Shown here: positions 11,430 to 60,697 of the stretch, piece after piece | Position numbering within the stretch: position 1 is the first letter of the stretch | Layout of the letters: each line of letters opens with the position of its first letter | Source of the DNA: a virus | Taxonomy: Duplodnaviria > Heunggongvirae > Uroviricota > Caudoviricetes | Direction: 5' to 3' (one strand) | IMG/VR virus record: IMGVR_UViG_3300046462_000479 | Length of the DNA: 64,000 nucleotides | The notes under the pieces: model-generated | Told to the model about the DNA's origin: nothing | Database searches by the model: none | Seen by the model: the letters and a program-made list of their open reading frames with translations, nothing else | Translations under genes and position numbers: made by a program

Positions 11430-11450
11430 TCCTAGCGGAAGGAAACAACT

Positions 11451-11846
11451 GTGAGTGACGACACAAAGCAGACGCTGACGTTCAAGACGACGGACGTCGT
11501 CAAGTCGTTGGAGACGGAGCTGCAGACCCGCGCGGACAAGCGGGCGGCAGCCAAGGAGAAGCAGGACGCCGAGAACAAGAAGAAGTTCGACCAGCTGGTC
11601 GGCCTGATGGGCGACGTGCCGGAGTTCCTCGTCTGGATAGTGAAGGAGGTCAACACCTGCTGGGGTCACGGCAACGTCGGCTCGGAGCAGTTCGACGAGC
11701 ATATCCGCAACACCTACAAGGCGCAGACGGACGGGTCCACGTCCGGCCCGGACACGGATCTGAAGCGGCTGATCCGCGTCTACCAGCTGACGACAGACGA
11801 GACGGTGGTGCTGGCACCGCAGGACGAACCGTACTACTACCTCTAG
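11451..11846 (+). CDS. hypothetical protein (131 aa), GTG start
   Basis: ORF track. Confidence 0.55.
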   Translation: MSDDTKQTLTFKTTDVVKSLETELQTRADKRAAAKEKQDAENKKKFDQLVGLMGDVPEFLVWIVKEVNTCWGHGNVGSEQFDEHIRNTYKAQTDGSTSGPDTDLKRLIRVYQLTTDETVVLAPQDEPYYYL

Positions 11847-11861
11847 ACCGAAGGAGCAGGA

Positions 11862-13400
11862 GTGGCCAAAGCTAACAGCCTGGTCGCTGAGCGTTGGGCT
11901 CACGGCCTGGTCAGTAAGGGCGTGGCCGCGCACCTGTGGGGGGGCACCGTTGTCATCGACGACAGCGGTGTCCTCCACTATCACCGTAAAGGCGGTGATC
12001 GCAGGTATGCGTGGGGGCCTGTCGTGTTGGGCCGGTATCTACCTAAGTCCCGGACGGTGCTGCTGAACGGGGACGGGTTCACGGACCGGCACGCGACCGA
12101 CTGGCAGACGAATCTACGAAACGAGGTGCGCAGACAAGTTCACGCCAATCCGGACAGCAAGTATGTCCGCAATGTGGCCATCGTGCCGTTCGCTGCTTTG
12201 GAGGCGGCCGGGGTCACGGTCGACACGTTCCGTCCCATCCATGTTGTCCAGGACGAAAACGAGCAGGTGTTCCGCCGTCTTCCGCACGTCACCAAGTCGG
12301 AACTGGAGCCGATCGGCGTCCACCAGGAGAAAGACGCTAGGTGGTTGTGGCAGGGGTCGGTGGAAGGACGGCAGTACCAGTACACCGAGTTCGGCGTGTA
12401 CGGATACGTAAACACGAGGACGGGCGAGAAAACAAATGACCGTGACGTCTATGGCGGCTGGCCTCGTTCTGAGTTGAAGTGGCAGGTCGTCGCCCACAGG
12501 GAAACGAATCAGTCGTGGACGGCACGCCAGGCGGTCGGAGGGTGGGCGTGGGTGCGTTCGCTTCCCACCCAGGAGGCGTTTGCCGCGTTAGTACAGGAGC
12601 GTGTCACTGCCAATATCTCCTCGTTGCGGACGGGAAGGCCTTTGAATGTTGGTCCTCTCCCGGAAGAGCCGGGCATGTACATGATCGAGGATATCCACCA
12701 CCTCGGCGCCTGCCTGTTTTCGGCTGAGAGCGTGGATGGCGGCCGCCACAAGTTCTTGTCGGCGTTCGACGAGGCCGAGCCGCAGCAGATGTATTTCCTC
12801 GCTCAGCTTCCGGACGGGTCGGGTGCGAAAACGTATGGGGAGGCGCTGTTGGCGTTGGCTCCTCCGATCGTGCATCAGGCAAGGCTGGAGGGAAGGAACG
12901 TGTTCCGGCAGGGCGACGTGTTCGCCATCGAAACGACTATGAGCGACGGGGAGGTGTATGCGCTAGCGAAAACACGGGTCCGGCGGAACGTCGTCATGTA
13001 TGCCGACACCGTCCACCAGATGGTCGCGGTGATAAACGGGACCGGGACAGAGCCGACGGTACGAGCTGGCGAACTCAGAGAGAAGGTGGAGTGTCCGTGT
13101 AAGTGCGGGCATAAGCGGTGGATCGGCTGGGGGCCGAAAGCGAAGCGGGCCCTGTCGATCTACCGGACCGGACATACGGCCGACGAGGTGGTGGTGTCCG
13201 CGAAAGGCACCACCTACGTCAGGGGACAGATGTACCACGATCCCGGTTTGGAAGATCCGGGGCGGCGGGAGGAGCATCAGTCTGTCGTTCTCGGCAGCGG
13301 GAAGTGGTGTATCGCTGTCCGTAATACGGTTCCGCGCCAGTCGGCGCGGCGGGCCCGGCAGCAGGCCGAGGCAACTACGAGAGAGGAGACACCGGTATGA
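11862..13400 (+). CDS. large hypothetical early protein (512 aa)
   Basis: Long ORF with good composition; C-terminal CPCKCGH; no motif recognised. Confidence 0.65.
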   Translation: MAKANSLVAERWAHGLVSKGVAAHLWGGTVVIDDSGVLHYHRKGGDRRYAWGPVVLGRYLPKSRTVLLNGDGFTDRHATDWQTNLRNEVRRQVHANPDSKYVRNVAIVPFAALEAAGVTVDTFRPIHVVQDENEQVFRRLPHVTKSELEPIGVHQEKDARWLWQGSVEGRQYQYTEFGVYGYVNTRTGEKTNDRDVYGGWPRSELKWQVVAHRETNQSWTARQAVGGWAWVRSLPTQEAFAALVQERVTANISSLRTGRPLNVGPLPEEPGMYMIEDIHHLGACLFSAESVDGGRHKFLSAFDEAEPQQMYFLAQLPDGSGAKTYGEALLALAPPIVHQARLEGRNVFRQGDVFAIETTMSDGEVYALAKTRVRRNVVMYADTVHQMVAVINGTGTEPTVRAGELREKVECPCKCGHKRWIGWGPKAKRALSIYRTGHTADEVVVSAKGTTYVRGQMYHDPGLEDPGRREEHQSVVLGSGKWCIAVRNTVPRQSARRARQQAEATTREETPV

Positions 13401-24343: not shown

Positions 24344-25834
24344 ATGGCAGCCGTAGCACAATCGGAACAAAGCAAGATCGAGGAGCGTCTCCGCGAATCG
24401 TTGCGGATGCTCGGCGGCGCAGCGTTCAAGGACGAGGACGTGATCAGCCGCGGCAAGCAGATGATCATCCCGGAACGGATGAGCTACCAGGACGCAGTCG
24501 ACTTCCTGGAGAAGCGGATCGCGGAAGAGGAACAGAAGACCTACTACGAGCGGACGTTCCCGTACCGGCCGATGGACGGCGCCTACTGCACCTGGGTGGC
24601 GTTGAAGGAACACTTCGGCTCGGTGTCGCACCGCTCGCAGACGGTGCAGACGATGTTCGGGCCGAAGAAGGCACCCCCGGCCATGATCGACATTCCCGTC
24701 GGACCGGACCGGATCGAGCAGGTGCCGTGGGGCAACTTCGAGATCCCGTTCCTGCCCGGAGTGGTGCTGGAACTCGGCTCGAAGTTCGACCCGGAGTTCG
24801 GACAGCTGTTCCACATCCAGGGGCAGGGCCCGAAGAAGTACCGCAACGAGGTCGAGGGCATCTTCAAGCTCGTCGCCCGGCAGCTGGCAACCTCGTCGAT
24901 CTACCGCGGCCAGGCGATCACCGGCAAGGAGACGCCCGACTTCCTCGACCTGTCCGGCATCGACCCGAAGAAGGTCACCTACAGCGAGGAGGTTCTCGCG
25001 CAGCTGGGCGCGAACGTGTGGAGCCTGATCCGCTACTCGGACGCGTTCCGTCTGGAAGGGCTGCCGTTGAAGCGGGCCGTCCTTCTCCACGGCCCGTACG
25101 GGACCGGCAAGACGCTGGCAGCGATGCTGACCGCACAGGAGTGCGTCCGCCACGAGTGGACGTTCCTGTACGCACGGCCGGGACGTGACGATCTCAACTT
25201 CGTCATGCAGACCGCCCGCCTGTACCAGCCCGCCTGCGTGTTCTTCGAGGACATGGACGTGGTTGCCGACCCCGGCACCGCGGAAGGCGACGACATCACC
25301 CGGCTGCTCGACCTGTTCGACGGCCTCACCGCCAAGAGCACCGAGATCCAGGTGATCCTGACCACCAACCACGTCGAGAAGATCCACAAGGGCATGACCC
25401 GGCCCGGCCGGTTGGACGCGATCATCGAGATCGGCAGCCTGGATGGGGCCGGAATCGAGAAGCTGATCAAGGCGGTCGTTCCGCACGACCAGCTGTCCGA
25501 CAACATCGACTGGGACAAGGTCGTCGCAGCCATGTCGGACAGCGACGGCGTGCCGGACTTCGTGCCCGCCTTCGTCAAGGAGGCGGCAGACCGGACACGT
25601 CGCTACGCGATCGCCCGCACCGGAGGCGACACCAGCGACCTGGAACTGACCACCGACGACTTCGTGCACGCAGCCACCGGCCTCCGGCCGCACCTGGACC
25701 TGATGCACGGAGCGAAGGACATGGTCGAGCGTGACCCGCTGTCGGTCGTGGTCAAGCGCGACGTCGGCCAGGAGATGGAGGTCAAGCTCCGCGAGCTGAT
25801 CCATCCCAAGTTCCTCGTCGAGGACGAAGCCTAA
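24344..25834 (+). CDS. AAA+ ATPase with a ~250-aa N-terminal domain
   Basis: Walker A GPYGTGKT, Walker B VFFEDMD, TTNHVEK...RPGRLD. Confidence 0.85.
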   Translation: MAAVAQSEQSKIEERLRESLRMLGGAAFKDEDVISRGKQMIIPERMSYQDAVDFLEKRIAEEEQKTYYERTFPYRPMDGAYCTWVALKEHFGSVSHRSQTVQTMFGPKKAPPAMIDIPVGPDRIEQVPWGNFEIPFLPGVVLELGSKFDPEFGQLFHIQGQGPKKYRNEVEGIFKLVARQLATSSIYRGQAITGKETPDFLDLSGIDPKKVTYSEEVLAQLGANVWSLIRYSDAFRLEGLPLKRAVLLHGPYGTGKTLAAMLTAQECVRHEWTFLYARPGRDDLNFVMQTARLYQPACVFFEDMDVVADPGTAEGDDITRLLDLFDGLTAKSTEIQVILTTNHVEKIHKGMTRPGRLDAIIEIGSLDGAGIEKLIKAVVPHDQLSDNIDWDKVVAAMSDSDGVPDFVPAFVKEAADRTRRYAIARTGGDTSDLELTTDDFVHAATGLRPHLDLMHGAKDMVERDPLSVVVKRDVGQEMEVKLRELIHPKFLVEDEA

Positions 25835-27993: not shown

Positions 27994-28653
27994 ATGGTCG
28001 ATCTGATCGGCAAGAGACTGAAGCTGCAGCAGCTGATGGTGGCAACGATCGCGGACCGGCAACACTGGTTCTACGACGAGGTGCGGCCGATGCCTGTCCC
28101 GGCCGCTTGGGCGAAGGGCCAGCACGTGAAGGGCGACTGTTCCAAGGGCGTCCAGTATCTGTGCCGGTGGGCGAACGCGCCCGACCCGATGCAGAACAAC
28201 TGGTCCCCTTACGGCAACTCGTCCACGATCTGGCTGGCGCTCCACCACGCGCTCGCCGCCTCCGTCCTACAGGTAGGAGACATCGTCACCTTCGGCAACA
28301 ACGGCAACGACCATGCGGCCATGGTCCTGGAAGCAGGCTCTGACCCGCTGCTGTGGAGCTTCGGACACCAGGGCGCACCCGACAGCTACCGGCTGTCCGC
28401 AGACACGCGCCCACATCAGCTGTGCGTGCTCCCCATCGTCGCTCCTCCCCCGACCATGCAAGACAAGCTGCGTGCCGCGACCGGCTACTACGCCTGGGTT
28501 GCTTGGAGGCTCGGAGAGGGCCCCTGGAAGCCGTGGGGGCCAGCCAACAAGTCGGTACGACCGAACGTGCCGAAGCTGATCCCTATGTCCTGGTGGAGGG
28601 ACTACGTGGCCTTCCTGGCAGCCAGAAAGAAAGGCAACACGGCTAGCATCTGA
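27994..28653 (+). CDS. NlpC/P60-family cysteine peptidase (candidate endolysin)
   Basis: GDCSKGVQYLC ... NDHAAMV Cys/His pair. Confidence 0.55.
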   Translation: MVDLIGKRLKLQQLMVATIADRQHWFYDEVRPMPVPAAWAKGQHVKGDCSKGVQYLCRWANAPDPMQNNWSPYGNSSTIWLALHHALAASVLQVGDIVTFGNNGNDHAAMVLEAGSDPLLWSFGHQGAPDSYRLSADTRPHQLCVLPIVAPPPTMQDKLRAATGYYAWVAWRLGEGPWKPWGPANKSVRPNVPKLIPMSWWRDYVAFLAARKKGNTASI

Positions 28654-29148
28654 TCAGGGGGAAGAAGTCGTCGAAGCCGGGACGGTGATCGTCACTATCT
28701 GCGCTGGCGGCGTGGTCACGCGTGGCCGCTCGTAGTAGAGGATGATCGCCGTGATGAACGACACCGCCAGTGCCACCAGCGAGTAGAGGATGGCGCTGAA
28801 CGCGTTCACGCCCTCACGGTGCCCTATCTGCGAGGCCATGTAATCGTTGATCGGCTTCATCGCCACTGCCGTTTTCGCGTCCAAGGCTTCCAGCCGGTCG
28901 TTAGACACGTAGGTACGGCGGATCTCGTCGATCTTGTTGGCGAGATCGTCGTGCTTATCCAGCGTGACGTAGTTGCCGCGCTCACGCTCGATCTGCTGCC
29001 GGAACTGGTTCATTGACTCCAGCCGGTACTCCAACGCGTCCTCCGCCTTATCCAACGCGTCCTTAGTGTCGTCGAAGCGCTGCTCGACGTACTGTTTAAG
29101 GGCGCGTAGCGTCCACCCCTCCCCATCTATTTCCGGTTCGCGAGCCAC
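28654..29148 (-). CDS. coiled-coil protein with a C-terminal transmembrane anchor (164 aa)
   Basis: C-terminal ILYSLVALAVSFITAIILYY. Confidence 0.55.
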   Translation of the reverse strand: MAREPEIDGEGWTLRALKQYVEQRFDDTKDALDKAEDALEYRLESMNQFRQQIERERGNYVTLDKHDDLANKIDEIRRTYVSNDRLEALDAKTAVAMKPINDYMASQIGHREGVNAFSAILYSLVALAVSFITAIILYYERPRVTTPPAQIVTITVPASTTSSP

Positions 29149-29152
29149 CCCA

Positions 29153-29761
29153 TTACACGCCAGGCGGGGTGGCTTTTAGTATGCCTCCTTGCGCCACTAC
29201 TACCTGATGCTCATGCACAAGCTCATCCTTGAACGACAGCATCGAGCGCGGGTCCGTGAACACAAGCAGCGTGTTGTTCTGCGCCTTTCTGGTCCCCGTG
29301 ACCGGGATCGTGCCTTCGCCTGACGCAGACCAGTTCGTCGACCCTTCGAAGCCGACGACGCCGTCCAGGACGCCGCCCTTGGTGTGGCTGATCTGATGGG
29401 TCTCGCTTTGGCCGATGGCGAAGTGGGCCTGGTATGCGGCAGGGTCCTGAGCCGCGTCAGAAGCAAGGATCGCTTTCTCATGCACGCCGCCCGCCTGGCT
29501 CTTATCCAACGTGATCACCGTCAACACGTTCGCGTTCTCGACGGAGTCCATGATCAACCTGTTCAGCGCGTCGTCGTCGTAGCCGAACATGTTCAAGTAG
29601 ATCGACTGTGTCACCATCCCGAACAGATACATGAGAATCCCATGAACATCATCCCGGCCCACGTAGAACAGCCGGTGGTCATCGGACGCGTCGGGAGGGA
29701 ACGCCTTCTCCAGCGTGTACGGTGCCAGATCGCCCAGAGTGAAGCTCTGTAGGCTAGTCAT
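29153..29761 (-). CDS. PLD-family (single HKD motif, Nuc-like) protein
   Basis: HTKGGVLDGVVGFEGSTN = HxK(x4)D(x6)GSxN. Confidence 0.75.
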   Translation of the reverse strand: MTSLQSFTLGDLAPYTLEKAFPPDASDDHRLFYVGRDDVHGILMYLFGMVTQSIYLNMFGYDDDALNRLIMDSVENANVLTVITLDKSQAGGVHEKAILASDAAQDPAAYQAHFAIGQSETHQISHTKGGVLDGVVGFEGSTNWSASGEGTIPVTGTRKAQNNTLLVFTDPRSMLSFKDELVHEHQVVVAQGGILKATPPGV

Positions 29762-29783
29762 CGTCCCCTCCCTTCCGCGCGTG

Positions 29784-30047
29784 TTACGGGGCCGGAGGAG
29801 TGATGCTTGCCAGCTCCGTTGCCACGGCCGCCGCAGCAGTCTGGACCGACTGGTCCTCAGCGGTCAGGTCCGCGGCGGGCTTCGCCGCAATTGCCGCGTT
29901 CACAGCGTCGATCAGCGTGTTGATAGCCGCGACGAGCGCAGCAAGATCGGTGTCGAACGTAGCCTGGTCAATCGCCATCTTGTCTAGCCTCCCTATGATC
30001 TGGTCGAGTTTGTCTTTGATCTGGTCGAATGGGTCCCATCTGCTCAT
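29784..30047 (-). CDS. Ala-rich hypothetical protein (87 aa)
   Basis: ORF track. Confidence 0.45.
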   Translation of the reverse strand: MSRWDPFDQIKDKLDQIIGRLDKMAIDQATFDTDLAALVAAINTLIDAVNAAIAAKPAADLTAEDQSVQTAAAAVATELASITPPAP

Positions 30048-30244
30048 TTGGTAGGTGGGACCTCACGGTTAAGAATCGGTGCCAGCCAGCCGCCAAAAGC
30101 CGAAATGACGCCGACAAGCGCGGCCGCTTCCGGCAACGTCACATGCACATGCATGAGCGACAGCAGCCAGACGGCGACCCCGGCACCAGTGCTGCCGAGC
30201 GCGCCGCCTACAACCTTGGGATGGAAGTCGGTGAAGCTGTTCAT
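30044..30244 (-). CDS. holin-like small membrane protein (two transmembrane segments, 66 aa)
   Basis: GGALGSTGAGVAVWLLSL...LVGVISAFGGWLAPIL. Confidence 0.45.
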   Translation of the reverse strand: MNSFTDFHPKVVGGALGSTGAGVAVWLLSLMHVHVTLPEAAALVGVISAFGGWLAPILNREVPPTK

Positions 30245-40648: not shown

Positions 40649-40956
40649 GTCACCTCTAGGACACCGGATAGCAGCACCGGGATTTCCGGGCTGTCTGTGA
40701 CTTTCACGTACACATCATAGAATCCGGCTGGGAGGACGACGGCTCCGCCGGGGCCGACCAGGCAGCGGGCGTAGTAGATGCCGTTCAGGGTGCTCCACGA
40801 TCCCGCGTAGAACGCGGTCGGTTCGGCTGCGGGGTCGGGGAACGCGAACGTGACTGTGTCTCCGGTCGGGTCGCCTCCGGTTGCTTCCGAGATGGGAACC
40901 CTCACGTATTGCAGCGAGGCGCTGTTGATCTGTAGGTCGGCGAGGCTGGCTGTCAT
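40645..40956 (-). CDS. hypothetical Ig-like protein (103 aa)
   Basis: Internal ATG; 4-nt overlap with the upstream gene. Confidence 0.5.
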   Translation of the reverse strand: MTASLADLQINSASLQYVRVPISEATGGDPTGDTVTFAFPDPAAEPTAFYAGSWSTLNGIYYARCLVGPGGAVVLPAGFYDVYVKVTDSPEIPVLLSGVLEVT

Positions 40957-43900
40957 AGCGGCTTTCCTGCGCTCCAATCTTGGTCTGTGTCGTCTGTCTG
41001 AATATCGACGCTCATTCTTCCGGTAGCCCATCCTGATTCTGGCGGGCAGACGGTGTAGTCGGCACCGACGCAGGTCAGTCTTCCGGTCGCCCAGCCGGAC
41101 TCCGGCAGGCCCGCCTTGAAGTACAGGTTCTGGGCTCTGACCGCGGTCGGCGGAACGATCCGGTACTTGGGCTGGCGTCGGTTGCGTCTGAGCGCGTCCT
41201 TGACCGCGACCAGCACGACGGTGAGGACAAGGATCGCGATCCTGCGTGCCGCCAACGTGGTCGGCGGGAAGATGCGGGTGTGCGGCCCGCGCCGTACCGC
41301 TTCCCGTTGGATGCGGCCGTTAAGGACAACCCTGATCGTCGACTGGCTGCGGTCGGGAAGTCGGTATGCGCCCTGGACGATCTTGCGGACGACAGTCGGC
41401 CGCGGCCTGATGCGGACCAGCCTGACCAGCGGACCGAAGAACACCTGCAGGACGGTCGGCTCTCCGAGAACCTTACTGGTCGGCCTAGGCCGTATACGGG
41501 CCAGCGTGACCCGGATCGTCTGCTCGGCCTGCTCGACGGACGGCACCCTGACCTTGGTCGGAATCCGGAGGAATCGGCTGGTCGGACGCGGCCTGGTGGC
41601 GACGGTATGGACGGACGGTCCAGCGAAGACCCGCAATGTCTGCGGCTCGCCGAGCGTCTTGCTGGTCGGCTTGGGCCTGGCGTGGGTGAGCGTGACCGCG
41701 ACAACGGTCTCGACCGGAGGAGTGGAGACGACGGTCGGCTCTCCGAGAACGTGGATGGTGGGTCTCGGCCTGGTGCGGACGAGACTGATGGCAAGCGTGC
41801 GCAGCTTCTGTTCGACCGACGGGACACGAACAACCTGCGGCTCTCCGAGTGTCTTGACGGTCGGACGCGGCCGAGTGTGGGTGAGCCACACAAACGGCCC
41901 GTAGAACGCCGCCTTAGCGACAACAGCCGGTTCAGCCAGGAACGAGCGCGGAGCCCGTCTCTGAGCTTCCAGGCGCGTCCTGAACGCCCTGGTGACGCTG
42001 ATGCTGCTCGTCTGCGGGTAGAAGATGAGCGGACCGAGCGTGCGCCTCGTCGGCCTCGGCCTGATCCTGGCCAGAGCGACCTGGATCGTCTGCATCCGCT
42101 GGGTCGGCAGCGGGATGACAACCGTCGGCGGCCGCAGGACAGAATGGGCTGGCCTGGTGACCCGCCTGACGGTGGCAACCTTGACCGGCGCCTGTGGCGG
42201 TGCGGCAACAATCGTGGGCGGCTGCAGCCTGCGGACGGTCGGCCTGGGCCTAGTCCGAACCAGGTCGACTCTGATCGTCTGTTCCTGCTGCTCGACAGAC
42301 GGAACACGGACAACCTGTGGCGGGCGCAGGAATGAATGGGCGGGCCGCCGCTTGTCTTCCAGCGGTATCCGTACCGCGACCTCGGTTTCTACCGGGCCGA
42401 AGAACTCCTGCAGTGTCGTCGGAGGCGGCAGGAACGCACGAGTCTTGCGTGGCCTTGTGTGAACGAGCGTGACAACGATCTCGCTGGTCTGCGAGTAGAA
42501 GACGGCAGCGAGACGGCGAACAGTCGGCCGCGGCCGGATCCGTGTCAGCGCGACAAGGATCCTGCTCGTCTGCGAGTAGACGGTGTAGCCGAGCTTGGTC
42601 CCGACTGTCGGCCTCGGCCTGATACGGGCCAGGTGGACGGCAGGGCCGTAGTAGATTTGGCCGACGGGGATGACGACTGCCGGTGGCGACAGTTTGGAAT
42701 GCGGCAGGCGACGGCGGTCCTCGACCGGGATACGTACAGCAACCTCTGCTTCGACCGGACCAGCAAAAACCTGTAGGGCCTGTGGCTGCCCGAGCGTTTT
42801 CGTGGTAGGCCGCGGCCGAGCCCGGACCAGATCGACCCTGATCGTCTGCTCCGCCTGCTCAACCGACGGGACACGAACAACCTGCGGCGGAGCGAGGAAG
42901 TAGCGGGTCTCACGCGGCCTGGTACGGACAGCCGCGACCACGACCTCGCTGGTTTGCGGGTAGACGGTGTAGCCGAGCCGGGTGCCGAGCGTATGCCGTG
43001 GCCGCGTGTGGACAAGATCGACGCGGATGGTGTCTTCGGCCAGCTCGATCGAGTACGGGGTGAGCGTCGCCGGAGGAGCAAGCAGCCAGACGGTGTGGCG
43101 CGGCCGGATACGGGCCAGCTCGGAGACGATCTCCAGCCGCCGGTCGGGAGCCCGCAGGTACGGCTCGACAACGGTGGTCTGGAAGAAACGCCGGGTGGGC
43201 CTCGGCCTGGTATGGACGAGCGGTGCGAGCGGCCCGTTGTAGACAGCACGGTTAATGACCTGCGGCTGGCCGAGATCCTTTGTGGTCGGCCGTGGCCGCG
43301 TGCGGACGAGCGTGACGCTGATCGTCTGCTCTCGGTGCTCAACACTGGGGACACGAACGGCCTGTGGTTCACCGAGAACATGGACGGTTGGCCGCGGCCG
43401 CGTGTGGGCCAGCCATGTTCTCGGACCCTGGAAGATCTGAAGTACGGTCGGCGGGCTAAGGAACGTTCTGGTCTTGCGCGGCCTAGCATGGGCCAGCCCG
43501 ACCAAGATCTCGCTGGTCTGCGCGTAGAAGAACGGCGGCCCGAGGTTCGACATCGGCGGCCGACGGTGCCTCCGGTTGAACCGGTCGATGGAGAGCAGGT
43601 TGACGGACGGCCCTTGGAACGTCTGCAGGACGGTCGGAGGACTGAGGAGCGAAGATGGGAAGTGGCGTCGCCCGAATCCGCGGAGCCGGTTGTCCTGGAG
43701 GTTGACGCTGATCAGCGGAGCAACGAACCCGGTTGCGGCGGGAACAAACCCGAACAGCGTGGCCGTCGTCCGGCGCGGCCGGGTGCGCGTCAGCTTCGTC
43801 TTGACGACGAGCTGGCCGGGCGTCGTGACGACCGCGAGCGGCCGGAGGTACAGGGCCGTCGTGAACGTCTTGGTGGTCGGCCTCGGCCGCGTCTTTACAA

Positions 43901-45494
43901 GGTCGACGCGAATCGGTGACGCGACGAACACGGCCGTCGTGATGACGGCGGGCGGAGCGAGCCGAGAGAACGTCCGGCGCGGCCGCGTCCTGGCGACGGC
44001 GACGGCGACATTCTCGGCGATCGGCGACGAGACGACCGTCGGCCCGTATAGGACGCTCATCGCGAGCCGCGCCGACGTGTTCCGGGACGCGCCGACAGCC
44101 CCCGTCGTCAGCCACGTCTGGACGGTTTCGATCCGCTGCGACGGCGGCGCGTTGAATACCTGCGGTGGCGCGATGCCCGCTACGGTGCGGCGACGGACCC
44201 GCGTGACACGCGACGAGGAGACGGCGACGGTAGTGACACTGACCGGCTCGGGGAGCGGCGGCGGCTGCGCGAGCGTCCCAACGGGGAACAGGAGCGACTT
44301 CGGGGCGCGCCGCTGCGCCTGCGCCCGGAGCATCACTGCGACGTCGAACGCGACCCCTTGGTTGATGGTCTGCTGTTGCTGCGAGATGGGAGCTGCCAGG
44401 ATCAGAGGTGGCTTCGGCCCGAGGAACGGCGACCGGTAAACAACCGATGTCTGCGGGATGGATCCTCCGCTGAAGTTGTCGAGGTTTGCGCCAGTCGCGA
44501 AAACGCTCGTCCGGATGTACGGGTAGTAGACGTCGGGCAGGAACGTGGAGTCACTGACTGAGATAGCGAGGAGCCAGTCGGTCGGGGTGGCGCCGTTCTT
44601 CTTCACCCAGACGGTGAGGCGTGTCCCTTCGCGCCTGAGACGGTACGAGTTACCCGCTGCGACCCCGGCGGCAGTAGACCCGGTACCTAGAGTGCTCCCG
44701 GATCCTTTGACGACCTTTATGAGCGTGATGGCTCCTCCGGACTGGGCGAATTGAACGTCGTAGCCGTTCTGGTCGCTGGCGTTCGGTCCAGCCGGTTGCG
44801 CGTTGAGTCCGAGGTTGAAAAAAGAGGCGACGGGCGCCGTGACGGAGTCGACGGCGACCTCGCAATACGGGCCGAATGGTTCTGCCCGGACAGCGATGGT
44901 CGAGCCAGATGTCGAACAGGCCACGTTCGACGTGATCGTGATAGAGCCAGCGAATCCGAATACCGGAGTCACCCAGTCCGGCCCGAGCGCCGCCCTGTTG
45001 AAGTCGTCGATCAGCCCGGATATCGCCGTCGGGACGTCCGTGTACGCCTGAACGTCGACCCATCCCGGGAGCGGGAACCGGCGCTTCTCCGAGATACGCC
45101 GCGACTGACTAGCGAGCGCGACCGTGATCGTCTGCTGCCGTTGGGTCGGAAGCGGCGTTACGAGTTGCGGAGGCTTCGGACCGAGGAGCGGACTGCGAAG
45201 CTGAACGATCTGCGTTCCGCCATCCGACAGCGACGTAGCTCTAGTGAGGCCGCCGTCCCAGCCCTGTAACGGGAACCGGCGTGTCCGGCCGTGGCCACGG
45301 TCGAGACGGTCGACGGCGAGGTTGACGTCTAGCGTCGTAACGACCGGCGGATTCGACGCGTTGGTGACCTCGGCGGGAGTGTGCGGGCCGATGTTGCTGC
45401 CGGAACCGGCGCCGTAGGAAGTGCCGTCTCCCTGGTCGGCGAGTGCAGGTGTTACGAACGCCTGCTGCTGTATGCCGCGGCCTATGCGCGGCAT
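40953..45494 (-). CDS. giant repeat protein (1513 aa): ~330-aa lectin-like N-terminal domain plus ~22 tandem 30-45-aa repeats ending in (T/I)RPR(P/K)T
   Basis: Uninterrupted 4.5-kb ORF; repeated VRVPSVEQxEQTIRVxLVRTRPRPT units. Confidence 0.7.
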   Translation of the reverse strand: MPRIGRGIQQQAFVTPALADQGDGTSYGAGSGSNIGPHTPAEVTNASNPPVVTTLDVNLAVDRLDRGHGRTRRFPLQGWDGGLTRATSLSDGGTQIVQLRSPLLGPKPPQLVTPLPTQRQQTITVALASQSRRISEKRRFPLPGWVDVQAYTDVPTAISGLIDDFNRAALGPDWVTPVFGFAGSITITSNVACSTSGSTIAVRAEPFGPYCEVAVDSVTAPVASFFNLGLNAQPAGPNASDQNGYDVQFAQSGGAITLIKVVKGSGSTLGTGSTAAGVAAGNSYRLRREGTRLTVWVKKNGATPTDWLLAISVSDSTFLPDVYYPYIRTSVFATGANLDNFSGGSIPQTSVVYRSPFLGPKPPLILAAPISQQQQTINQGVAFDVAVMLRAQAQRRAPKSLLFPVGTLAQPPPLPEPVSVTTVAVSSSRVTRVRRRTVAGIAPPQVFNAPPSQRIETVQTWLTTGAVGASRNTSARLAMSVLYGPTVVSSPIAENVAVAVARTRPRRTFSRLAPPAVITTAVFVASPIRVDLVKTRPRPTTKTFTTALYLRPLAVVTTPGQLVVKTKLTRTRPRRTTATLFGFVPAATGFVAPLISVNLQDNRLRGFGRRHFPSSLLSPPTVLQTFQGPSVNLLSIDRFNRRHRRPPMSNLGPPFFYAQTSEILVGLAHARPRKTRTFLSPPTVLQIFQGPRTWLAHTRPRPTVHVLGEPQAVRVPSVEHREQTISVTLVRTRPRPTTKDLGQPQVINRAVYNGPLAPLVHTRPRPTRRFFQTTVVEPYLRAPDRRLEIVSELARIRPRHTVWLLAPPATLTPYSIELAEDTIRVDLVHTRPRHTLGTRLGYTVYPQTSEVVVAAVRTRPRETRYFLAPPQVVRVPSVEQAEQTIRVDLVRARPRPTTKTLGQPQALQVFAGPVEAEVAVRIPVEDRRRLPHSKLSPPAVVIPVGQIYYGPAVHLARIRPRPTVGTKLGYTVYSQTSRILVALTRIRPRPTVRRLAAVFYSQTSEIVVTLVHTRPRKTRAFLPPPTTLQEFFGPVETEVAVRIPLEDKRRPAHSFLRPPQVVRVPSVEQQEQTIRVDLVRTRPRPTVRRLQPPTIVAAPPQAPVKVATVRRVTRPAHSVLRPPTVVIPLPTQRMQTIQVALARIRPRPTRRTLGPLIFYPQTSSISVTRAFRTRLEAQRRAPRSFLAEPAVVAKAAFYGPFVWLTHTRPRPTVKTLGEPQVVRVPSVEQKLRTLAISLVRTRPRPTIHVLGEPTVVSTPPVETVVAVTLTHARPKPTSKTLGEPQTLRVFAGPSVHTVATRPRPTSRFLRIPTKVRVPSVEQAEQTIRVTLARIRPRPTSKVLGEPTVLQVFFGPLVRLVRIRPRPTVVRKIVQGAYRLPDRSQSTIRVVLNGRIQREAVRRGPHTRIFPPTTLAARRIAILVLTVVLVAVKDALRRNRRQPKYRIVPPTAVRAQNLYFKAGLPESGWATGRLTCVGADYTVCPPESGWATGRMSVDIQTDDTDQDWSAGKPL
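41290..44060 (-). repeat. in-frame tandem DNA repeats (~100-130-bp units) inside the giant gene
   Basis: Recurrent GGCCTCGGCCTG...GATCGTCTGC nucleotide blocks. Confidence 0.6.
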
Positions 45495-57026: not shown

Positions 57027-59231
57027 CTACCGGCCGACCATCCAATCCTGCGGCTCCTGCCGCATATATCCGGTTTCGGATTGGGGGATCTGCATGTCGC
57101 GGCGGATGCCGGTGCCGCCGATGGACAGGCCCGTGTATTTGCCGTCCAGGACGTCCTGCCACACGGCCGGGTCTTCGCAGTGCAACACCATCACCCAGGT
57201 GCCCTTCTTCACCATCTCTGTGCCGTCGTAGGTGAAATCGGTGGGGGCAATGAACGACTCGACCGGGACTAGGCTTGGCTTGTTCGTTTTGAAGAATCCG
57301 GGGCGTGCGTGCTGCAGCTTCGACACCGACGCTTTCCCCTTGGCCACGTTCTTCATGTACTTGTGGGCGGCCGACTCGACCTCCTGCGGGATCATCCAGT
57401 CGTCCTGGCTGTCCAGGGCGTTTGGTTCCAGTACGACGCCGTAGATCAGCTGCCGGTGCTTGTCCGCCTTCTGTACCTGGTATTTCAGGCGCCGGTTGGC
57501 GTACATGATCGAGATGTTCTTCAGGGGGACATTGACGTGAACGTCTGAGATGGTGGGGCCGGAAACGGCTGCCATCGCGCCAGCCTCGCCCTGCCCTTCC
57601 AGTCCGGCGGCAGCGTCGCCTACGTCGTTGGAGGGGGGAGCGTCTCCGGCCGGACCTTCGGCGAAGTCTTTGCCGAGCATATCTCCGCCGATGATGTCCA
57701 GCACCTCGTTCCACGAATGGGGCGGCATTTCGGTGTAGTGGCTGACCACGTTCGGGTTGGTCCACTGCACGTTCCGGTTGGCGTCCTGCATGAAGTCGTT
57801 GGCCTGCACTTTCAGGCATTCTCCTTTGCGGGCCCGATGCTTGGTCGGGTTGGTGCGGCCGATGTAGTGGCCGTCGCGGGTGATCATCCGGTAGCTGTAG
57901 CCGCCGTCGGGTGTGCGGCTCATCCCGTGCACACGCAGGTTCAGTGTGGCCGGACGTGCCTGCGCTTTCTTCACCTCGAACGCCTTCTTCGCTTTCAGCT
58001 TGCCGCCTTTGAAGTCGATCTCTAGGATGGTGCCGGGACCGATCTCGTCGGCCTGGATCGCTCTGGTGTCGACTTTGCTGCGGTAGCCGTGGCCACCCAG
58101 CCAGCCTTCGGCCAGCTCGATGTTGCGGCTGTGGGTGATCAGCGCGACCGTGTGGCCTTGGTCGACCATCTTCAACAGCTTCTCCAACGCTGGGATGAAC
58201 CGCTTCTGGTAGGCGTTGAAGGATTCGCCGCCGTCGACGGGCTTGTCGGGATGGTCGTCCATGAACGGCTTCAGTTTCGGGATCACGTCCGCGGACGAGT
58301 GGCCTGCGAACGAGCCGAGGTTCCAGGGCCGGTAGGCGTTGTCTGACTTGACCGGGGCCCCGCAGATACGGCTGGCGATCTTCGAGGTCTGCTCGGCCCG
58401 TGTCAGCGTCGAGCTGTAGATCGTCTCCACTCCCGCGTTCTTCAAGAACTTGCCGAGGTTGCGGGCCTGTACGCGGCCTTGCGCGTCCAGCGGGATGTCG
58501 CGCCAGCCTTGCACGATGTCGTGCGGCGCTCCCGGCTTGTTGTAGCGGGTCTTCGCGTGCGAGACCAGGAACAGTTTCCCTGGCGTCGTTTTCATGGTCG
58601 GCTCGATCGCTTCCCCGAACTCGCGCAGCTTGTCACGCAGCCGGGCGGGAGGGTCTTCGGAGTGGCGTTCCTCCTGCACGTACAACGGGTCATGCTTGTC
58701 GATCCGTCCTTCCCAGCGGTCACAGACGTAGCCTTGGTCGACCTGGACGTTGTCGAACATTTCGCAGCGTCCGGCCGTGAAGAAGTCGCAGTTGCCGCAA
58801 TCTTCGTCTGCGTCGTCTGAGGGACGGTAGTGCGCCCAGCCGGGGATGCCGCTCTTCTTCACGGACTCGGCCAGCTCCTGCTTCTCCCATTCCTTTACGT
58901 CGCGGAGCGTCATCACGCCGCCGTTCGCTTCCACTTTCTCCCGGATGTTGGCGTGTTCCGGCTCAGCCAGACCGTCCAGCCAGTAGGACAGCTCCTGGTC
59001 GACAGGGTCGTGGCCGTACTTGTCGTTGCATTCGGACCGCAGGTCGGGATGGGCGGCCCAGAAGCGGCGTAGCTCCTGTTTGGCGTCCTCTTCGATGGCG
59101 CTGACGTTGGCGCAGTCTTTGTCGACGGTGTGGGGAAGCTTGCCTTTGTTGTCGAAATGATGGCGCTTCACCCAGTCGTGTCCAAAGCGGGCGTTCAGGT
59201 ACTCGCGCTGTTGTTGGCTACGGGCAGGCAT
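57027..59231 (-). CDS. prohead protease (HK97/S78-like C-terminal domain) fused to a degenerate histidine-phosphatase (PGAM/SixA-like) domain and a Cys-rich N-terminus (734 aa)
   Basis: C-terminus DSQDDWMIPQEV...LQHA...GLSIGG (His and Ser); middle QGWRDIPLDAQGRVQARNLGKFL...TIYSSTLTRAEQT...ALITHS. Confidence 0.7.
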   Translation of the reverse strand: MPARSQQQREYLNARFGHDWVKRHHFDNKGKLPHTVDKDCANVSAIEEDAKQELRRFWAAHPDLRSECNDKYGHDPVDQELSYWLDGLAEPEHANIREKVEANGGVMTLRDVKEWEKQELAESVKKSGIPGWAHYRPSDDADEDCGNCDFFTAGRCEMFDNVQVDQGYVCDRWEGRIDKHDPLYVQEERHSEDPPARLRDKLREFGEAIEPTMKTTPGKLFLVSHAKTRYNKPGAPHDIVQGWRDIPLDAQGRVQARNLGKFLKNAGVETIYSSTLTRAEQTSKIASRICGAPVKSDNAYRPWNLGSFAGHSSADVIPKLKPFMDDHPDKPVDGGESFNAYQKRFIPALEKLLKMVDQGHTVALITHSRNIELAEGWLGGHGYRSKVDTRAIQADEIGPGTILEIDFKGGKLKAKKAFEVKKAQARPATLNLRVHGMSRTPDGGYSYRMITRDGHYIGRTNPTKHRARKGECLKVQANDFMQDANRNVQWTNPNVVSHYTEMPPHSWNEVLDIIGGDMLGKDFAEGPAGDAPPSNDVGDAAAGLEGQGEAGAMAAVSGPTISDVHVNVPLKNISIMYANRRLKYQVQKADKHRQLIYGVVLEPNALDSQDDWMIPQEVESAAHKYMKNVAKGKASVSKLQHARPGFFKTNKPSLVPVESFIAPTDFTYDGTEMVKKGTWVMVLHCEDPAVWQDVLDGKYTGLSIGGTGIRRDMQIPQSETGYMRQEPQDWMVGR

Positions 59232-59239
59232 CAGAAGGA

Positions 59240-59255
59240 GTGTGACATGTCACAC
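59240..59255. repeat. 16-bp palindrome 9 nt upstream of the protease-fusion start
   Basis: Perfect match. Confidence 0.9.
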
Positions 59256-60697
59256 TAGGATTGTTCGCTTTTCGCTCCGGAAGGCTGCGCGTCCGAGCCG
59301 GGAGGACCGGCCCCGCTCAGCTGCCGCTGGTCGAAGTCGTATTTCTCTGGGTCGTTGATGGCTGGTGCGCCCATCTGTTCGTTGATCCACGGAAGCGTCG
59401 TTTCCCAGTCGATCGGGGCGCCGGTGCGGCCGATCCGGTTGATGAAGTTGCCCAGCGTGTCCAGGTCGATCGTTTCCACCGAGCTATGACACAGCTTCGG
59501 CATCTCGTCGGTGCGGCCGTTCAGCTTCCACAGGATAGGGATGCACTGCGTGTTAAAGACGCTGCTGATGATGTCAAGGTAGGCGCCCAAAGAGGCTGCA
59601 AACAGGTCCTTTTTCGTGACCGACAGCGCGTACGAGCCGACCTTGTCTTGGCCCATCATCACCAGGTCGGCCAACACCGAGGTGGCCATACGGTTCTCGT
59701 AGCGGCCGATGATCTGGCTGGTGTCGAACTGCCGTGATCCGGCTGACGCCATCAGCTGCAGCTCCCACCCGAACGGCAGCACCACGCCTTCCTGTTCGTC
59801 GCGGCGGATCGACGACACCACCGTTTTCGCCATCTGCAACATGTTGGCCATGCTGGTGTCGGACGCATCCCAAATGTCGGTGCCTTCCGGCGGGATCAGC
59901 ACAGGCAGACCGGCCAGGTCGCGCTCGATCCCGATCGCCTCGATCTGCTGGATGTTCTTAATGAACCACCAGGAGCGGTAGGCGTTGCGGAGGATGCTGC
60001 GGCCTTCCGGGTTGTCCTTGAAGATGGTGGTGCGGAAATGGAGCGCCTTGTTGCGCGGAATGAAGCGGAGCAGATAGTCGGGCGGCGGGTTCTGGATCAT
60101 GCCGTCGATCTCTCCGAAGTCGTTGAACACCCATTTCCACAGGCTGTCCTGGGAACGCAACGGGATCTTGGCCAGCCCGATCTGCCCGTCGTTGTACAGG
60201 CTGGACATGGTCGGACTCTGGTCCCAGCCTTTCCGGACCTTGAACACCATCTCGTGGTAGCTGTAGCCGTACTGGAGGAAGCTGATGATCTCGCTGATCG
60301 AGTCGGCCCAGCTGAACGCCATGTCTTCGCGGACCTCGTCGAACCATTTGGCTCCGGGACTGTCTTTCGGTTCGCTCCACCAGGTGACGCGACGCATGAG
60401 CATGGTGATGGCGTAGAGGACGGCCCCGATGATCGGGTCCTGGTCGCCCATCTCCCGGTATACCTCTGCGGCTCGGCGGCCCTGCTGCAGCTGGGTCAGC
60501 CATTCCTCGAAGACGAAGCCGCCCCAGTGTCTGAGACCGGATCGGCCGAACTCTTCTGTCAGGTCGCTACCGCCGTAGCCGAGGTTGTATTTCGTTTGTG
60601 GGCTGGCGGCTTTGCCCAGCATTGTGCGCGGGCCGAAGTCGCCGACGATGCGGCGGCCCTCGTTGGGGTGGTGTCCGTTGGTTCCGGCGAGAATCAC
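59255..60697 (-). CDS. portal protein (480 aa)
   Basis: Size and position upstream of the protease. Confidence 0.6.
   Translation of the reverse strand: MILAGTNGHHPNEGRRIVGDFGPRTMLGKAASPQTKYNLGYGGSDLTEEFGRSGLRHWGGFVFEEWLTQLQQGRRAAEVYREMGDQDPIIGAVLYAITMLMRRVTWWSEPKDSPGAKWFDEVREDMAFSWADSISEIISFLQYGYSYHEMVFKVRKGWDQSPTMSSLYNDGQIGLAKIPLRSQDSLWKWVFNDFGEIDGMIQNPPPDYLLRFIPRNKALHFRTTIFKDNPEGRSILRNAYRSWWFIKNIQQIEAIGIERDLAGLPVLIPPEGTDIWDASDTSMANMLQMAKTVVSSIRRDEQEGVVLPFGWELQLMASAGSRQFDTSQIIGRYENRMATSVLADLVMMGQDKVGSYALSVTKKDLFAASLGAYLDIISSVFNTQCIPILWKLNGRTDEMPKLCHSSVETIDLDTLGNFINRIGRTGAPIDWETTLPWINEQMGAPAINDPEKYDFDQRQLSGAGPPGSDAQPSGAKSEQS

Follow-up and report, generated by a model that had tools for sequence, protein, structure and literature searches.

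What is a phospholipase D (PLD) superfamily protein doing among the lysis genes of a tailed phage? In the known scheme of phage lysis, a holin and an endolysin are followed by an outer-layer step that is carried out by spanins, by disruptin or, in mycolate-containing hosts, by LysB; to our knowledge, an enzyme that degrades the phospholipid membranes themselves lies outside this scheme. The locus that raises the question was found in a window of 64,000 nucleotides, the whole stretch of DNA that was analysed, from a soil virus of the Caudoviricetes (IMG/VR record IMGVR_UViG_3300046462_000479). A region around a strand switch, at positions 27994-30244, holds five genes that the first-pass annotation had described as a lysis region. 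All five are real: the open reading frames match that description, and gene calls made independently on identical metagenome contigs gave the same frames. The features of the region are as follows.

27994..28653, plus strand: 219-aa cysteine peptidase of the NlpC/P60 fold, convergent to the rest of the module
28654..29148, minus strand: 164-aa membrane protein (hydropathy scan), last gene of the late operon
29153..29761, minus strand: 202-aa single-HKD PLD superfamily protein, the subject of this analysis
29765..29776, minus strand: Shine-Dalgarno-like GGAAGGGAGGGG, 3-14 nt 5' of the PLD ATG, read from the sequence
29784..30047, minus strand: 87-aa Ala-rich, acidic, helical protein (open reading frame and sequence)
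30044..30244, minus strand: 66-aa holin-like protein (hydropathy scan) with a strong Shine-Dalgarno (AGGAGG) and a weak PHROG match

The genes are tightly packed. The TGA stop of the 219-aa gene (28651-28653) abuts the minus-strand stop of the 164-aa gene (28654-28656) with 0 intergenic bases, the start of the 87-aa gene overlaps the stop of the 66-aa gene (ATGA) and the PLD gene lies 22 nt in total from the upstream 87-aa gene, a gap from which co-transcription with the late operon follows. A scan of the surroundings of the PLD gene found no promoter-like and no convincing terminator-like site, and nothing else that was informative. The gap, the strong Shine-Dalgarno-like sequence and the absence of such sites place the PLD gene, as a predicted late gene, on one transcript with the tail and holin-like genes. 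The 6-kb region had no megablast match among phages.

The 202-aa protein contains the complete signature HxK(x)4D(x)6GSxN (H126-T-K128-GGVL-D133-GVVGFE-G140-S141-T-N143), and residues H126, K128, D133, G140, S141 and N143 are invariant among 37 homologues. A viral subgroup (18 of 49 loci) has the Asp replaced and a one-residue insertion, with the His, the Lys and GSxN kept. The AF2 model (pLDDT of 80, pTM of 0.79) was matched by Foldseek to FAM83A, NucT, Zucchini, Nuc, PLDs and phosphatidylserine synthase with a probability of 1.0, and the 27 PDB matches at E <= 1e-3 are all PLD superfamily folds or PLD-like domains. The earlier assignment as a single-HKD PLD/Nuc-like protein is thus borne out by both the full invariant signature and the fold. 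The score of the protein against PF13091 (PLDc_2) is 19.3 bits, under the cut-off of 27, while more distant relatives found with the family profile exceed this cut-off (32-41 bits); the family is therefore a divergent branch that PF13091 covers poorly. The protein is acidic (pI 4.85, net charge of about -12), as is the core of the family (median pI 4.9, net charge of -8 to -13). It has no GxSxG motif, and a hydropathy scan revealed no signal peptide and no transmembrane or other hydrophobic segment.

The convergent neighbour was claimed to be an NlpC/P60-like peptidase, an identification that holds despite the lack of any match by sequence in Pfam, PHROGs, NCBIfam or the PDB. The AF2 model of the 219-aa protein (pLDDT of 94) aligns best in Foldseek with the P60 domains of MAP1204, RipB, RipA and NlpC2, which are mycobacterial (E from 1e-4, probability of 1.0). 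Among 34 homologues, Cys49 and His107 never vary and His125 almost never does, so that the papain-like fold is accompanied by a conserved Cys-His-His/polar triad. Given that Pfam NLPC_P60 returns nothing at E <= 0.1, the protein is a divergent member of NlpC/P60. For the same reason, it was ruled out that the lone Pfam NLPC_P60 match among downstream neighbours is this protein. The 219-aa protein is the only match among the window genes to a set of lysin and lipase seed families (phmmer), and it is a candidate endolysin and the sole recognisable peptidoglycan hydrolase among these genes. It is homologous to the lysin of locus L161 (27% identity, E = 7e-9) and also to the c22 lysin, which is encoded 5' of the PLD gene in L010. 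The statement that no LysB-like esterase is recognisable stands insofar as the lipase seeds match nothing in the window; GxSxG motifs do occur there, only in proteins unmatched by these seeds, which contain no LysB or cutinase family.

The remaining three proteins are small. A single strong hydrophobic segment is present at the C-terminus of the 164-aa protein (residues 119-137 in the hydropathy scan), which supports the transmembrane part of the earlier description as a transmembrane/coiled-coil protein; the helical or coiled-coil character of its N-terminal part was read by eye from the sequence and is unscored. The protein is a near-orphan, with two matches among 5.8 billion proteins; it is a probable membrane component of the lysis module. 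L010 and L159 each encode a protein with this architecture (151 aa and 438 aa, respectively) beside the PLD gene; the sequence similarity to the 438-aa protein is marginal, and homology to these membrane proteins could not be established. The 87-aa protein, correctly noted as Ala-rich on the minus strand, shows no convincing transmembrane segment and no significant family match in Pfam, PHROGs or NCBIfam. The 66-aa protein had been called a two-transmembrane holin-like protein. Two hydrophobic stretches are present and there is a weak match to the PHROG holin phrog_9284 (E = 0.002), but only one of the stretches is over the threshold of the hydropathy scan. It is homologous to the 68-aa protein of L161 whose stop overlaps the PLD start (32% identity, E = 1e-6).

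To place the PLD gene in a broader context, 49 non-redundant viral PLD loci were compared, with genes called there by a heuristic made for this analysis. A recognised lysin lies within six genes of the PLD gene in 21 of the 49 loci, and 17 of 24 lysin matches fall at offsets -1 to -4, with none further out. Small same-strand membrane proteins are likewise concentrated near the PLD gene (37 of 271 genes within three genes of it versus 20 of 476 further out; Fisher p = 5.6e-6). The neighbouring lysins belong to at least five types (GH19, GH24, GH25, Rv2525c-like and NlpC/P60). In L161, the closest relative on a long contig, the tail genes are followed in turn by an NlpC/P60 lysin gene, the holin-like gene, the PLD gene and the gene of a small membrane protein; the stop of the holin-like gene overlaps the start of the PLD gene (ATGA). 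The PLD start overlaps a small membrane-protein (holin-like) gene in the same way in L159 and L010, the other two of the three phages examined, and in L018 the PLD gene has a GH24 lysin gene on one side and, on the other, genes for a lipoprotein, a patatin and a membrane protein with two hydrophobic segments. A PLD domain of the family is fused to a papain-like cysteine peptidase in P0347, a single 3.5-kb contig, and a phage homologue of this peptidase adjoins an amidase. The PLD gene is therefore found beside holin and endolysin genes, co-transcribed with its module and in an arrangement conserved across unrelated phages. Membership of the lysis module, as proposed for it from the window alone, is well supported by the gene order and overlap in L161 and by the clustering of lysins and membrane proteins across the 49 viral loci.

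Two other readings of the neighbourhood were considered. Tail-fibre genes (DUF4376 and pectate-lyase-like) often lie upstream of the PLD gene; a role as a virion or tail enzyme was rejected as the main reading, as the protein has no tail-attachment domain and tail genes are expected upstream because lysis cassettes come after them. A recurrent 198-aa neighbour (cluster c1, motif RHAEK) was considered as a histidine phosphatase, which Pfam and PDB searches did not confirm, and no relationship to the His_Phos_1 domain of the 734-aa head protein of the window was detectable; this neighbour is therefore given no weight in the argument.

The substrate is suggested by the company that the family keeps. 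Patatin genes lie downstream of PLD genes, with a 4-nt overlap in L013. In genomes, Lipase_3 proteins, PF04185 phospholipase C-type phosphoesterases and Tle1-like phospholipases are encoded one to three genes from the PLD gene in about 7-9 of 67 loci, an enrichment relative to a background rate taken from general knowledge rather than measured. The gene of a relative, P0300, lies 20 nt 3' of gpsA. An attack on lipids is favoured, rather than shown, by the lipase, patatin and phospholipase C neighbours, by the adjacency to gpsA in this relative and by the acidic core, which would be odd for a non-specific nucleic-acid binder. Tentatively, and with a confidence that approaches an even chance, we read the 202-aa protein as an active single-HKD phosphodiesterase and component of the lysis module whose likeliest substrate is membrane glycerophospholipid. 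By analogy with Nuc, two copies would pair into one active site, in which His126 may attack the phosphodiester by way of a phospho-histidine intermediate. The protein would remain cytoplasmic up to the opening of the membrane by the holin, and would then cut head groups off the cytoplasmic membrane and, once the holin and endolysin have acted, off the outer membrane. Removal of the head groups could help the envelope to fall apart and the virions to be released, a step that might matter most where removal of the wall alone leaves stable spheroplasts. The enzyme would then be a membrane-directed functional counterpart of LysB, spanins or disruptin that is usable in many host phyla.

Two groups of known enzymes come close to this proposal. 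LysB, the mycolyl-arabinogalactan esterase of mycobacteriophages, is similarly soluble, has no export signal and is encoded in the lysis cassette beside the endolysin and holin; its presumed target once the wall has been breached is a lipid layer of the envelope, and it is the closest functional analogy. However, LysB is unrelated in fold and chemistry, being an alpha/beta hydrolase of the cutinase-like type whose GxSxG serine acts on an ester bond, and it is confined to phages of mycolate-containing hosts, whereas the PLD family occurs in many phyla. With its PLD fold and no GxSxG motif, the 202-aa protein can be an analogue of LysB only and is not a member of that group. The second comparison is with the type VI secretion system (T6SS) effectors Tle5/PldA-PldB, which use HKD chemistry, and the patatin-like CapV of CBASS, all of which kill or lyse by degrading membrane phospholipid; patatin genes directly adjoin genes of the PLD family, and Tle1-like genes lie nearby. 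Tle5 differs in being large, with two HKD motifs per chain, and in being delivered by a secretion system and having immunity partners. Neither T6SS nor CBASS genes were seen here, and PADLOC gave no match.

Some points weigh against a lipid substrate: before the holin acts, the inner leaflet could already be open to attack by a phospholipase in the cytoplasm, premature damage for which the proposal does not account, and the best fold matches of the same size are nucleases or pseudo-enzymes (NucT, Nuc, Zucchini and FAM83; 13-16% identity). Single-HKD proteins of known activity are mostly nucleases. The protein could be a late nuclease of the Nuc/NucT type that degrades nucleic acid of the host or set free on lysis, for example to recycle nucleotides or to make the viscous lysate thinner and let virions disperse, or that assists DNA processing beside the terminase. 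Like the PLD protein, the endonucleases Nuc (pKM101) and NucT (Helicobacter pylori) are chains of about 150-200 residues with a single HKD motif, and they have the same fold (Foldseek E = 4e-5 to 9e-6, target TM score of 0.64-0.65); the PLD protein is presumably, as they are, a dimer with a shared active site. Zucchini/MitoPLD (PLD6) is also a single-HKD dimer of similar size (structural match at E = 2e-5), although it is eukaryotic, with a mitochondrial outer membrane anchor and a basic nucleic-acid groove, and about 15% identical. Zucchini was first called a cardiolipin hydrolase and was later shown to be a single-strand RNA nuclease, a history from which it follows that specificity for lipid or nucleic acid is unreadable from the fold. 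A BFVD match to an Arthrobacter phage 'NucT-like nuclease' (E = 2.5e-3) and the Lys/Arg/Ala/Pro-rich C-terminal tails of some members, which could bind DNA, are consistent with a nuclease, as is the position of the PLD gene directly 5' of the large terminase gene in five viral loci; HK97-like phages have an HNH nuclease gene directly upstream of the large terminase gene. Nevertheless, no terminase or portal gene lies beside the PLD gene in the window, L003 or L161, and the genes that recur beside it encode lipases, patatin and phospholipase C-type enzymes, not proteins of DNA metabolism. Identity to Nuc and NucT is 13-15% and is not significant (phmmer against the PDB gave no match, and the family profile against NucT gave E = 0.57). 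The PLD protein further differs in having about 28 additional, conserved residues at its N-terminus, and most of its relatives in a longer loop after GSxN; its gene belongs to a phage lysis cassette and not to a plasmid or competence locus. The absence of an N-terminal hydrophobic segment separates it from the periplasmic Nuc, which is exported, and the pI, as a measure of the charge of the whole protein, gives no sign of the basic surface of that group; the core is strongly acidic in nearly all members. On balance, a nuclease seems unlikely.

A cargo ('moron') gene at the end of the late operon, acting as a toxin or in lysogenic conversion, host lipid remodelling, phosphate scavenging or counter-defence, also seems improbable. 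The end of the late operon and the junction of the lysis genes and the terminase are also sites of cargo genes in phages. The immediate neighbours of the PLD gene are extremely diverse (the largest cluster is present in ten of the 141 loci with the gene), and accessory genes nearby encode an ADP-ribosyltransferase toxin domain, an Acb2/Tad1-like domain, metallophosphoesterases and SRAP. Bacterial chromosomes contain many members of the family, and about two-thirds of these copies lie among ordinary, unrelated housekeeping genes with no lysis genes nearby; the family thus has a life outside phage lysis. Its identity of 55-65% across phages and genomes of Actinomycetota, Proteobacteria, Acidobacteriota and other phyla suggests a universal target rather than one type of envelope. 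The gene overlaps with holin-like genes in L161, L159 and L010, the position between lysin and holin-like and lipoprotein genes in L018 and the fusion to a lysis-type peptidase all argue against cargo, as do the absence of a PADLOC match, the lack of a promoter of its own in the window and the late expression, which fits counter-defence poorly. A further possibility is a lysis enzyme that cleaves a phosphodiester of an envelope polymer, such as the linkage between teichoic acid or arabinogalactan and peptidoglycan, lipoglycan anchors or undecaprenyl-linked precursors. All of the evidence for a lysis module applies equally to such an enzyme, and one relative is fused to a wall-directed peptidase at the place where actinophage endolysins have additional modules that act on the wall or bind it. 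A tight family that spans diderm and monoderm-type phyla has no such polymer in common, however, and the patatin, Lipase_3, phospholipase C-type and gpsA partners point to glycerolipids; this possibility is considered quite remote.

For the membrane-lipid reading, the distribution of the family widens the claim. Its clusters at 90% identity number more than 4,800, every one of them labelled hypothetical, and its conservation between host phyla is unusually high. It is present in Betaproteobacteria prophages and in phages with GH19 or GH24 endolysins as well as across many phyla, which indicates that it is not a device specific to mycolate envelopes. The suggestion that the protein attacks phospholipids or envelope lipids in place of LysB is hence favoured by the neighbours and the acidity in its first part and too narrow in its second. 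It is possible, if rather doubtful, that the family is a widespread unrecognised lysis effector, a holin-coupled phospholipase D that breaks down the membrane phospholipid of the host, sometimes together with a patatin phospholipase A, and that replaces or supplements spanins, disruptin and LysB in phages of many bacterial phyla. The presence of a PLD in a lysis cassette is indeed unusual, as had been remarked: searches of PHROGs and NCBIfam with the protein, like that of PADLOC, gave no match, tblastn gave none in INPHARED (50,697 sequenced phages) or PLSDB plasmids, a BFVD fold search with the model returned remote PLD folds only and a search of the full-text literature found no PLD-family protein in a phage lysis cassette. 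Current phage annotation thus passes over the family, which is absent from the annotation libraries queried and from the INPHARED isolates. If the protein is a lysis phospholipase, it would represent a new enzymatic route of envelope disruption and a candidate membrane-active antibacterial enzyme, and would explain a recurrent 'hypothetical protein' of soil viromes; should it instead be a nuclease or the product of a cargo gene, the tight coupling of PLD and holin genes still calls for an explanation.

Among cultured bacteria, PLD-bearing prophages are present in Silvimonas terrae DSM 18233 and in Pararobbsia alpina LMG 28138, and perhaps also in Nocardia panacis and Mycobacterium sp. OTB74.

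The 202-residue protein encoded at 29153-29761 on the minus strand had been described in the first-pass annotation as a single-HKD PLD-like protein, and this identity holds. Residues 126-143 (HTKGGVLDGVVGFEGSTN) carry the HxK(x)4D(x)6GSxN signature in full. When 37 homologues are aligned, no signature position varies, and neither do the segments FYVGRDD, NMFGYDD, TLDKSQ..HE and AQNNTL or an EH pair near the C-terminus. The AF2 model (pLDDT of 80; a monomer in which residues 147-160 form a low-confidence loop) matches solely PLD-superfamily folds, including FAM83A, NucT, Zucchini, Nuc, bacterial and human PLDs and phosphatidylserine synthase (probability of 1.0, 13-16% identity). By sequence the protein stands far from any described one. 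The PF13091 score of 19 bits lies under the cut-off of 27, and no match was obtained in PHROGs, NCBIfam or PADLOC, or in a sequence search of the PDB. The family profile has no significant match to NucT (E = 0.57), and membership of the Nuc/NucT nucleases cannot be demonstrated. The intact signature and the modelled fold place the protein in the PLD superfamily as a predicted enzyme, which probably works as a dimer. No hydrophobic segment was found in it. The protein is strongly acidic (pI of 4.85; median of 4.9 for the family core), and certain family members carry an extra basic tail of Lys, Arg, Ala and Pro residues.

The window reads as a tailed-phage genome of high GC content (~61%), with no DNA match among 50,697 phage records, and independent gene calling on identical metagenome contigs recovers its ORFs. 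Transcription of the left half is from the plus strand; a late operon on the minus strand extends from ~63.9 kb to 28.65 kb. The features that concern us here are as follows.

24344-25834, plus strand, AAA ATPase in the left half
27994-28653, plus strand, 219-residue NlpC/P60 protein
28654-29148, minus strand, 164-residue membrane protein
29153-29761, minus strand, 202-residue PLD-like protein
29784-30047, minus strand, 87-residue protein
30044-30244, minus strand, 66-residue holin-like protein
57027-59231, minus strand, head protease fusion near the start of the late operon
59255-60697, minus strand, Mu-type portal near the start of the late operon

The final genes of the late operon encode, in order, proteins of 1304 (tape-measure-sized), 671, 181, 66, 87, 202 (PLD-like) and 164 residues. 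The 671- and 181-residue products are read as putative tail proteins because of where they lie and because, in two other loci carrying the PLD gene (L161 and L159), homologues come ahead of the lysis genes. The 219-residue gene ends at 28653 and the stop of the 164-residue gene starts at 28654, such that the two stops abut with zero spacer (TGA followed directly by TCA, 28651-28656). No terminator-like hairpin was found at this junction, and without one the converging transcripts would run into one another. The 22 nt between the 87-residue gene and the PLD gene contain GGAAGGGAGGGG; no promoter-like or convincing terminator-like site was found around the PLD gene.

The 219-residue protein has no match in Pfam, PHROGs, NCBIfam or, by sequence search, the PDB, and its family of 253 members consists entirely of hypothetical proteins. 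C49 and H107 are invariant in this family and H125 is nearly so, and the AF2 model (pLDDT of 94) matches the P60 domains of MAP1204, RipB, RipA and NlpC2; the earlier NlpC/P60 assignment was therefore right. A scan of every window gene with the lysin seed families yielded no other candidate. Two hydrophobic stretches occur in the 66-residue protein, which also matches a PHROG holin family weakly, the 87-residue protein is an Ala-rich acidic helix and the 164-residue protein, nearly an orphan, has a single strong C-terminal transmembrane segment.

The PLD family is large and unannotated: among 5.8 billion proteins searched, matches fall into 4,834 clusters at 90% identity, and no cluster has a more informative name than 'hypothetical protein'. 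It is also tight and discrete. The best 120 of the 4,834 clusters are 61-100% identical to the query, clustering at 50% leaves only a few representatives of full length, together with fragments and a sparse outer set of distant relatives, and 487 matches at E <= 1e-3 were found among 1.8 billion representatives. Members occur on 67 viral contigs of IMG/VR and in at least 206 species-representative genomes; sequenced phage isolates and PLSDB plasmids have none. Hosts include Actinomycetota (Mycobacterium, Nocardia, Pseudonocardiaceae, Streptosporangiaceae, Conexibacter and Thermoleophilia), Beta- and Alphaproteobacteria (Burkholderia, Pararobbsia, Silvimonas, Aquitalea and Inhella), Acidobacteriota, Gemmatimonadota, Planctomycetota, Myxococcota and others, and across all of them identity remains at 51-65%. 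A viral subgroup (L044-L071; 18 of 49 non-redundant loci) reads HTKGGVL[V/T/L/S/A]GQG, with the Asp substituted and a one-residue insertion; the His, Lys and GSxN are retained. In L044, L047, L054, L066 and L070 of this subgroup the PLD gene lies immediately upstream of the large terminase gene.

Genes in 154 loci (L001-L154) were called with a simple GC3-based heuristic, which under-calls small membrane proteins (the window's own 66-residue gene was missed), and were then clustered. Taken one by one, the neighbouring families are very diverse; their kinds are not. A Pfam scan of three genes either side of the PLD gene in the 49 non-redundant viral loci (IMG/VR contigs, which include prophages and possibly mis-binned fragments) found GH25 (3), phage lysozyme GH24 (2), GH19 (2), Rv2525c-like (1), LysM (1) and tail-fibre domains upstream, and portal (8), large terminase (6), metallophosphoesterase (4), patatin (3), GH19 (2), Rv2525c-like, SLT, NlpC/P60 and Lipase_3 domains downstream. 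With seven lysin clusters as seeds, a lysin was detected within six genes of the PLD gene in 21 of these loci, counts that are lower bounds because only seven seed families were used. Offsets of -1 to -4 account for 17 of the 24 matches, and none lies beyond offset 6, though each offset up to 9 offered ~30 genes. Small proteins that are encoded on the same strand and contain a hydrophobic segment are enriched within three genes (37 of 271 genes, versus 20 of 476 farther away; Fisher p = 5.6e-6), and 25 of the 49 loci have one within two genes.

Among relatives on long contigs L161 is the closest, its PLD protein being 81% identical; the gene order there is tape measure, 675-residue protein, 208-residue tail protein, 246-residue NlpC/P60 lysin, 68-residue holin-like protein, PLD, 60-residue membrane protein and strand switch; the lysin and holin-like protein are homologous to the window's 219- and 66-residue proteins, and the PLD start overlaps the stop of the holin-like gene. 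In L159 a 79-residue membrane protein gene overlaps the PLD start, a coiled-coil, C-terminally anchored protein follows and an NlpC/P60 homologue lies four genes further on. One operon in L010 encodes an NlpC/P60 lysin, a 151-residue coiled-coil protein with a C-terminal transmembrane segment, a 75-residue two-segment protein and the PLD, the last two genes overlapping. L003 has an Rv2525c-like lysin, small proteins and the PLD before a strand switch. Gram-negative-type cassettes occur in L018 (membrane protein, GH24 lysin, PLD, 76-residue two-segment protein, 144-residue lipoprotein with an LAGC lipobox, patatin) and in the Silvimonas terrae prophage L089, which has the same membrane protein, GH24 lysin and PLD without the downstream genes. 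The PLD gene of L013 overlaps a patatin gene by 4 nt. In phages, members of the family are coupled, both by gene position and by translation, to genes for holins and endolysins of many types. Three features set the window apart from its relatives: a lysin on the converging strand, an extra 87-residue gene between the holin-like and PLD genes, and the anchored coiled-coil protein in last position.

At 8548-9426 in L161 the converging operon ends in a Band_7 (stomatin-like) gene and a 178-residue gene, where the window has its NlpC/P60 lysin; L161 and the window share the upstream genes, which encode an AAA ATPase of ~496 residues and a 269-residue protein. The lysin has therefore changed strands in the lineage of the window.

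Chromosomal copies have different surroundings. A recognised lysin is nearby in only two of 67 non-redundant genome loci, small membrane proteins are not enriched around these 67 copies and the neighbours are mostly unrelated housekeeping genes. Lipolytic or phospholipid-related genes nevertheless recur within one to three genes of the PLD: the PF04185 phospholipase C/acid phosphatase family in four loci (including Mycobacterium talmoniae), Lipase_3 in three, a Tle1-like phospholipase in two and patatin in one. By a rough estimate, with the background rate taken from general knowledge, this is well above the level for random genes. The gene for P0300, a distant relative, follows gpsA (glycerol-3-phosphate dehydrogenase, an enzyme of phospholipid synthesis) at a distance of 20 nt. 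A conserved protein of ~200 residues with an RHAEK motif (cluster c1), without a match in Pfam or the PDB, is encoded one or two genes from the PLD in Actinomycetota and Alphaproteobacteria genomes (L075, L087, L090, L092, L111, L115 and others), often with Lipase_3 or a PF04185 phosphoesterase, and may be a functional partner of the chromosomal copies.

Another distant relative, P0347 (461 residues), joins an N-terminal papain-like cysteine peptidase through a Pro-rich linker to a C-terminal PLD domain with the family motifs FYAPVDDVHG, SMFGFDD, LDRSQSRGVHE and GSTNLSASGE; it serves as supporting evidence only, because the fusion is known from a single 3.5-kb contig. The peptidase weakly resembles cathepsins and is similar to neighbour cluster c6, whose gene stands between a GH25 lysin gene and the PLD gene in five viral loci. 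It is also 32% identical (E = 2e-27) to a myovirus 'cysteine protease' encoded after an N-acetylmuramoyl-L-alanine amidase at the late-gene end.

We tentatively favour a lysis-associated phospholipase, at somewhat less than an even chance. The protein would act at lysis and its substrate would be membrane phospholipid. Four observations suggest this reading: patatin, lipase and phospholipase C genes as neighbours, the location of one relative beside gpsA, an acidic core, and hosts so varied that the substrate should be universal. The fold neighbours, and the general rule that characterized single-HKD proteins are nucleases, would instead suit a nuclease, which we consider unlikely; given the history of Zucchini/MitoPLD, the fold alone cannot separate these two. 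The chromosomal copies and nearby accessory genes could indicate a cargo gene without a lysis role, an improbable explanation that fits poorly with the overlaps between PLD and holin-like genes. A phosphodiesterase acting on an envelope polymer appears very unlikely.

In function, the protein would come closest to LysB, from which it differs in fold and chemistry and with which it is not to be equated, and to Tle5 and CapV, phospholipase effectors that degrade membranes. No description of a PLD-family gene in a phage lysis cassette was found in the literature searched; the proposed role and the context would both be new for this known enzyme superfamily.

Several further features were noted. 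By eye, the 438-residue product of the gene after the PLD in L159 (7840-9156) resembles a coiled-coil membrane protein with a C-terminal anchor, split by an intein-like insert that has Cys at its start, LAGLYDGEG (LAGLIDADG-like) inside and HN at its end; it would be surprising for a membrane protein of a lysis cassette to carry an intein. In L001 and L002 (metagenome contigs of 242 and 150 kb) the PLD gene is near a patatin gene and a T2SSE-type ATPase, and L002 has a second, different PLDc_2 gene (191 residues, 11439-12014). In the window, the 734-residue protein just downstream of the Mu-type portal (57027-59231, minus strand) combines His_Phos_1 (E = 7e-28, residues 220-374) with a C-terminal XkdF-like serine protease (Peptidase_S78_2, E = 6e-25), an unusual fusion of phosphatase and head-maturation protease that might be a packaged or ejected enzyme. 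Finally, a 1513-residue ORF without a Pfam match (40953-45494, minus strand) lies between 40 and 50 kb in a segment with a GC content of 65-67%, compared with 59-64% elsewhere in the window, and may encode a large protein of different origin with a role in structure or host interaction.
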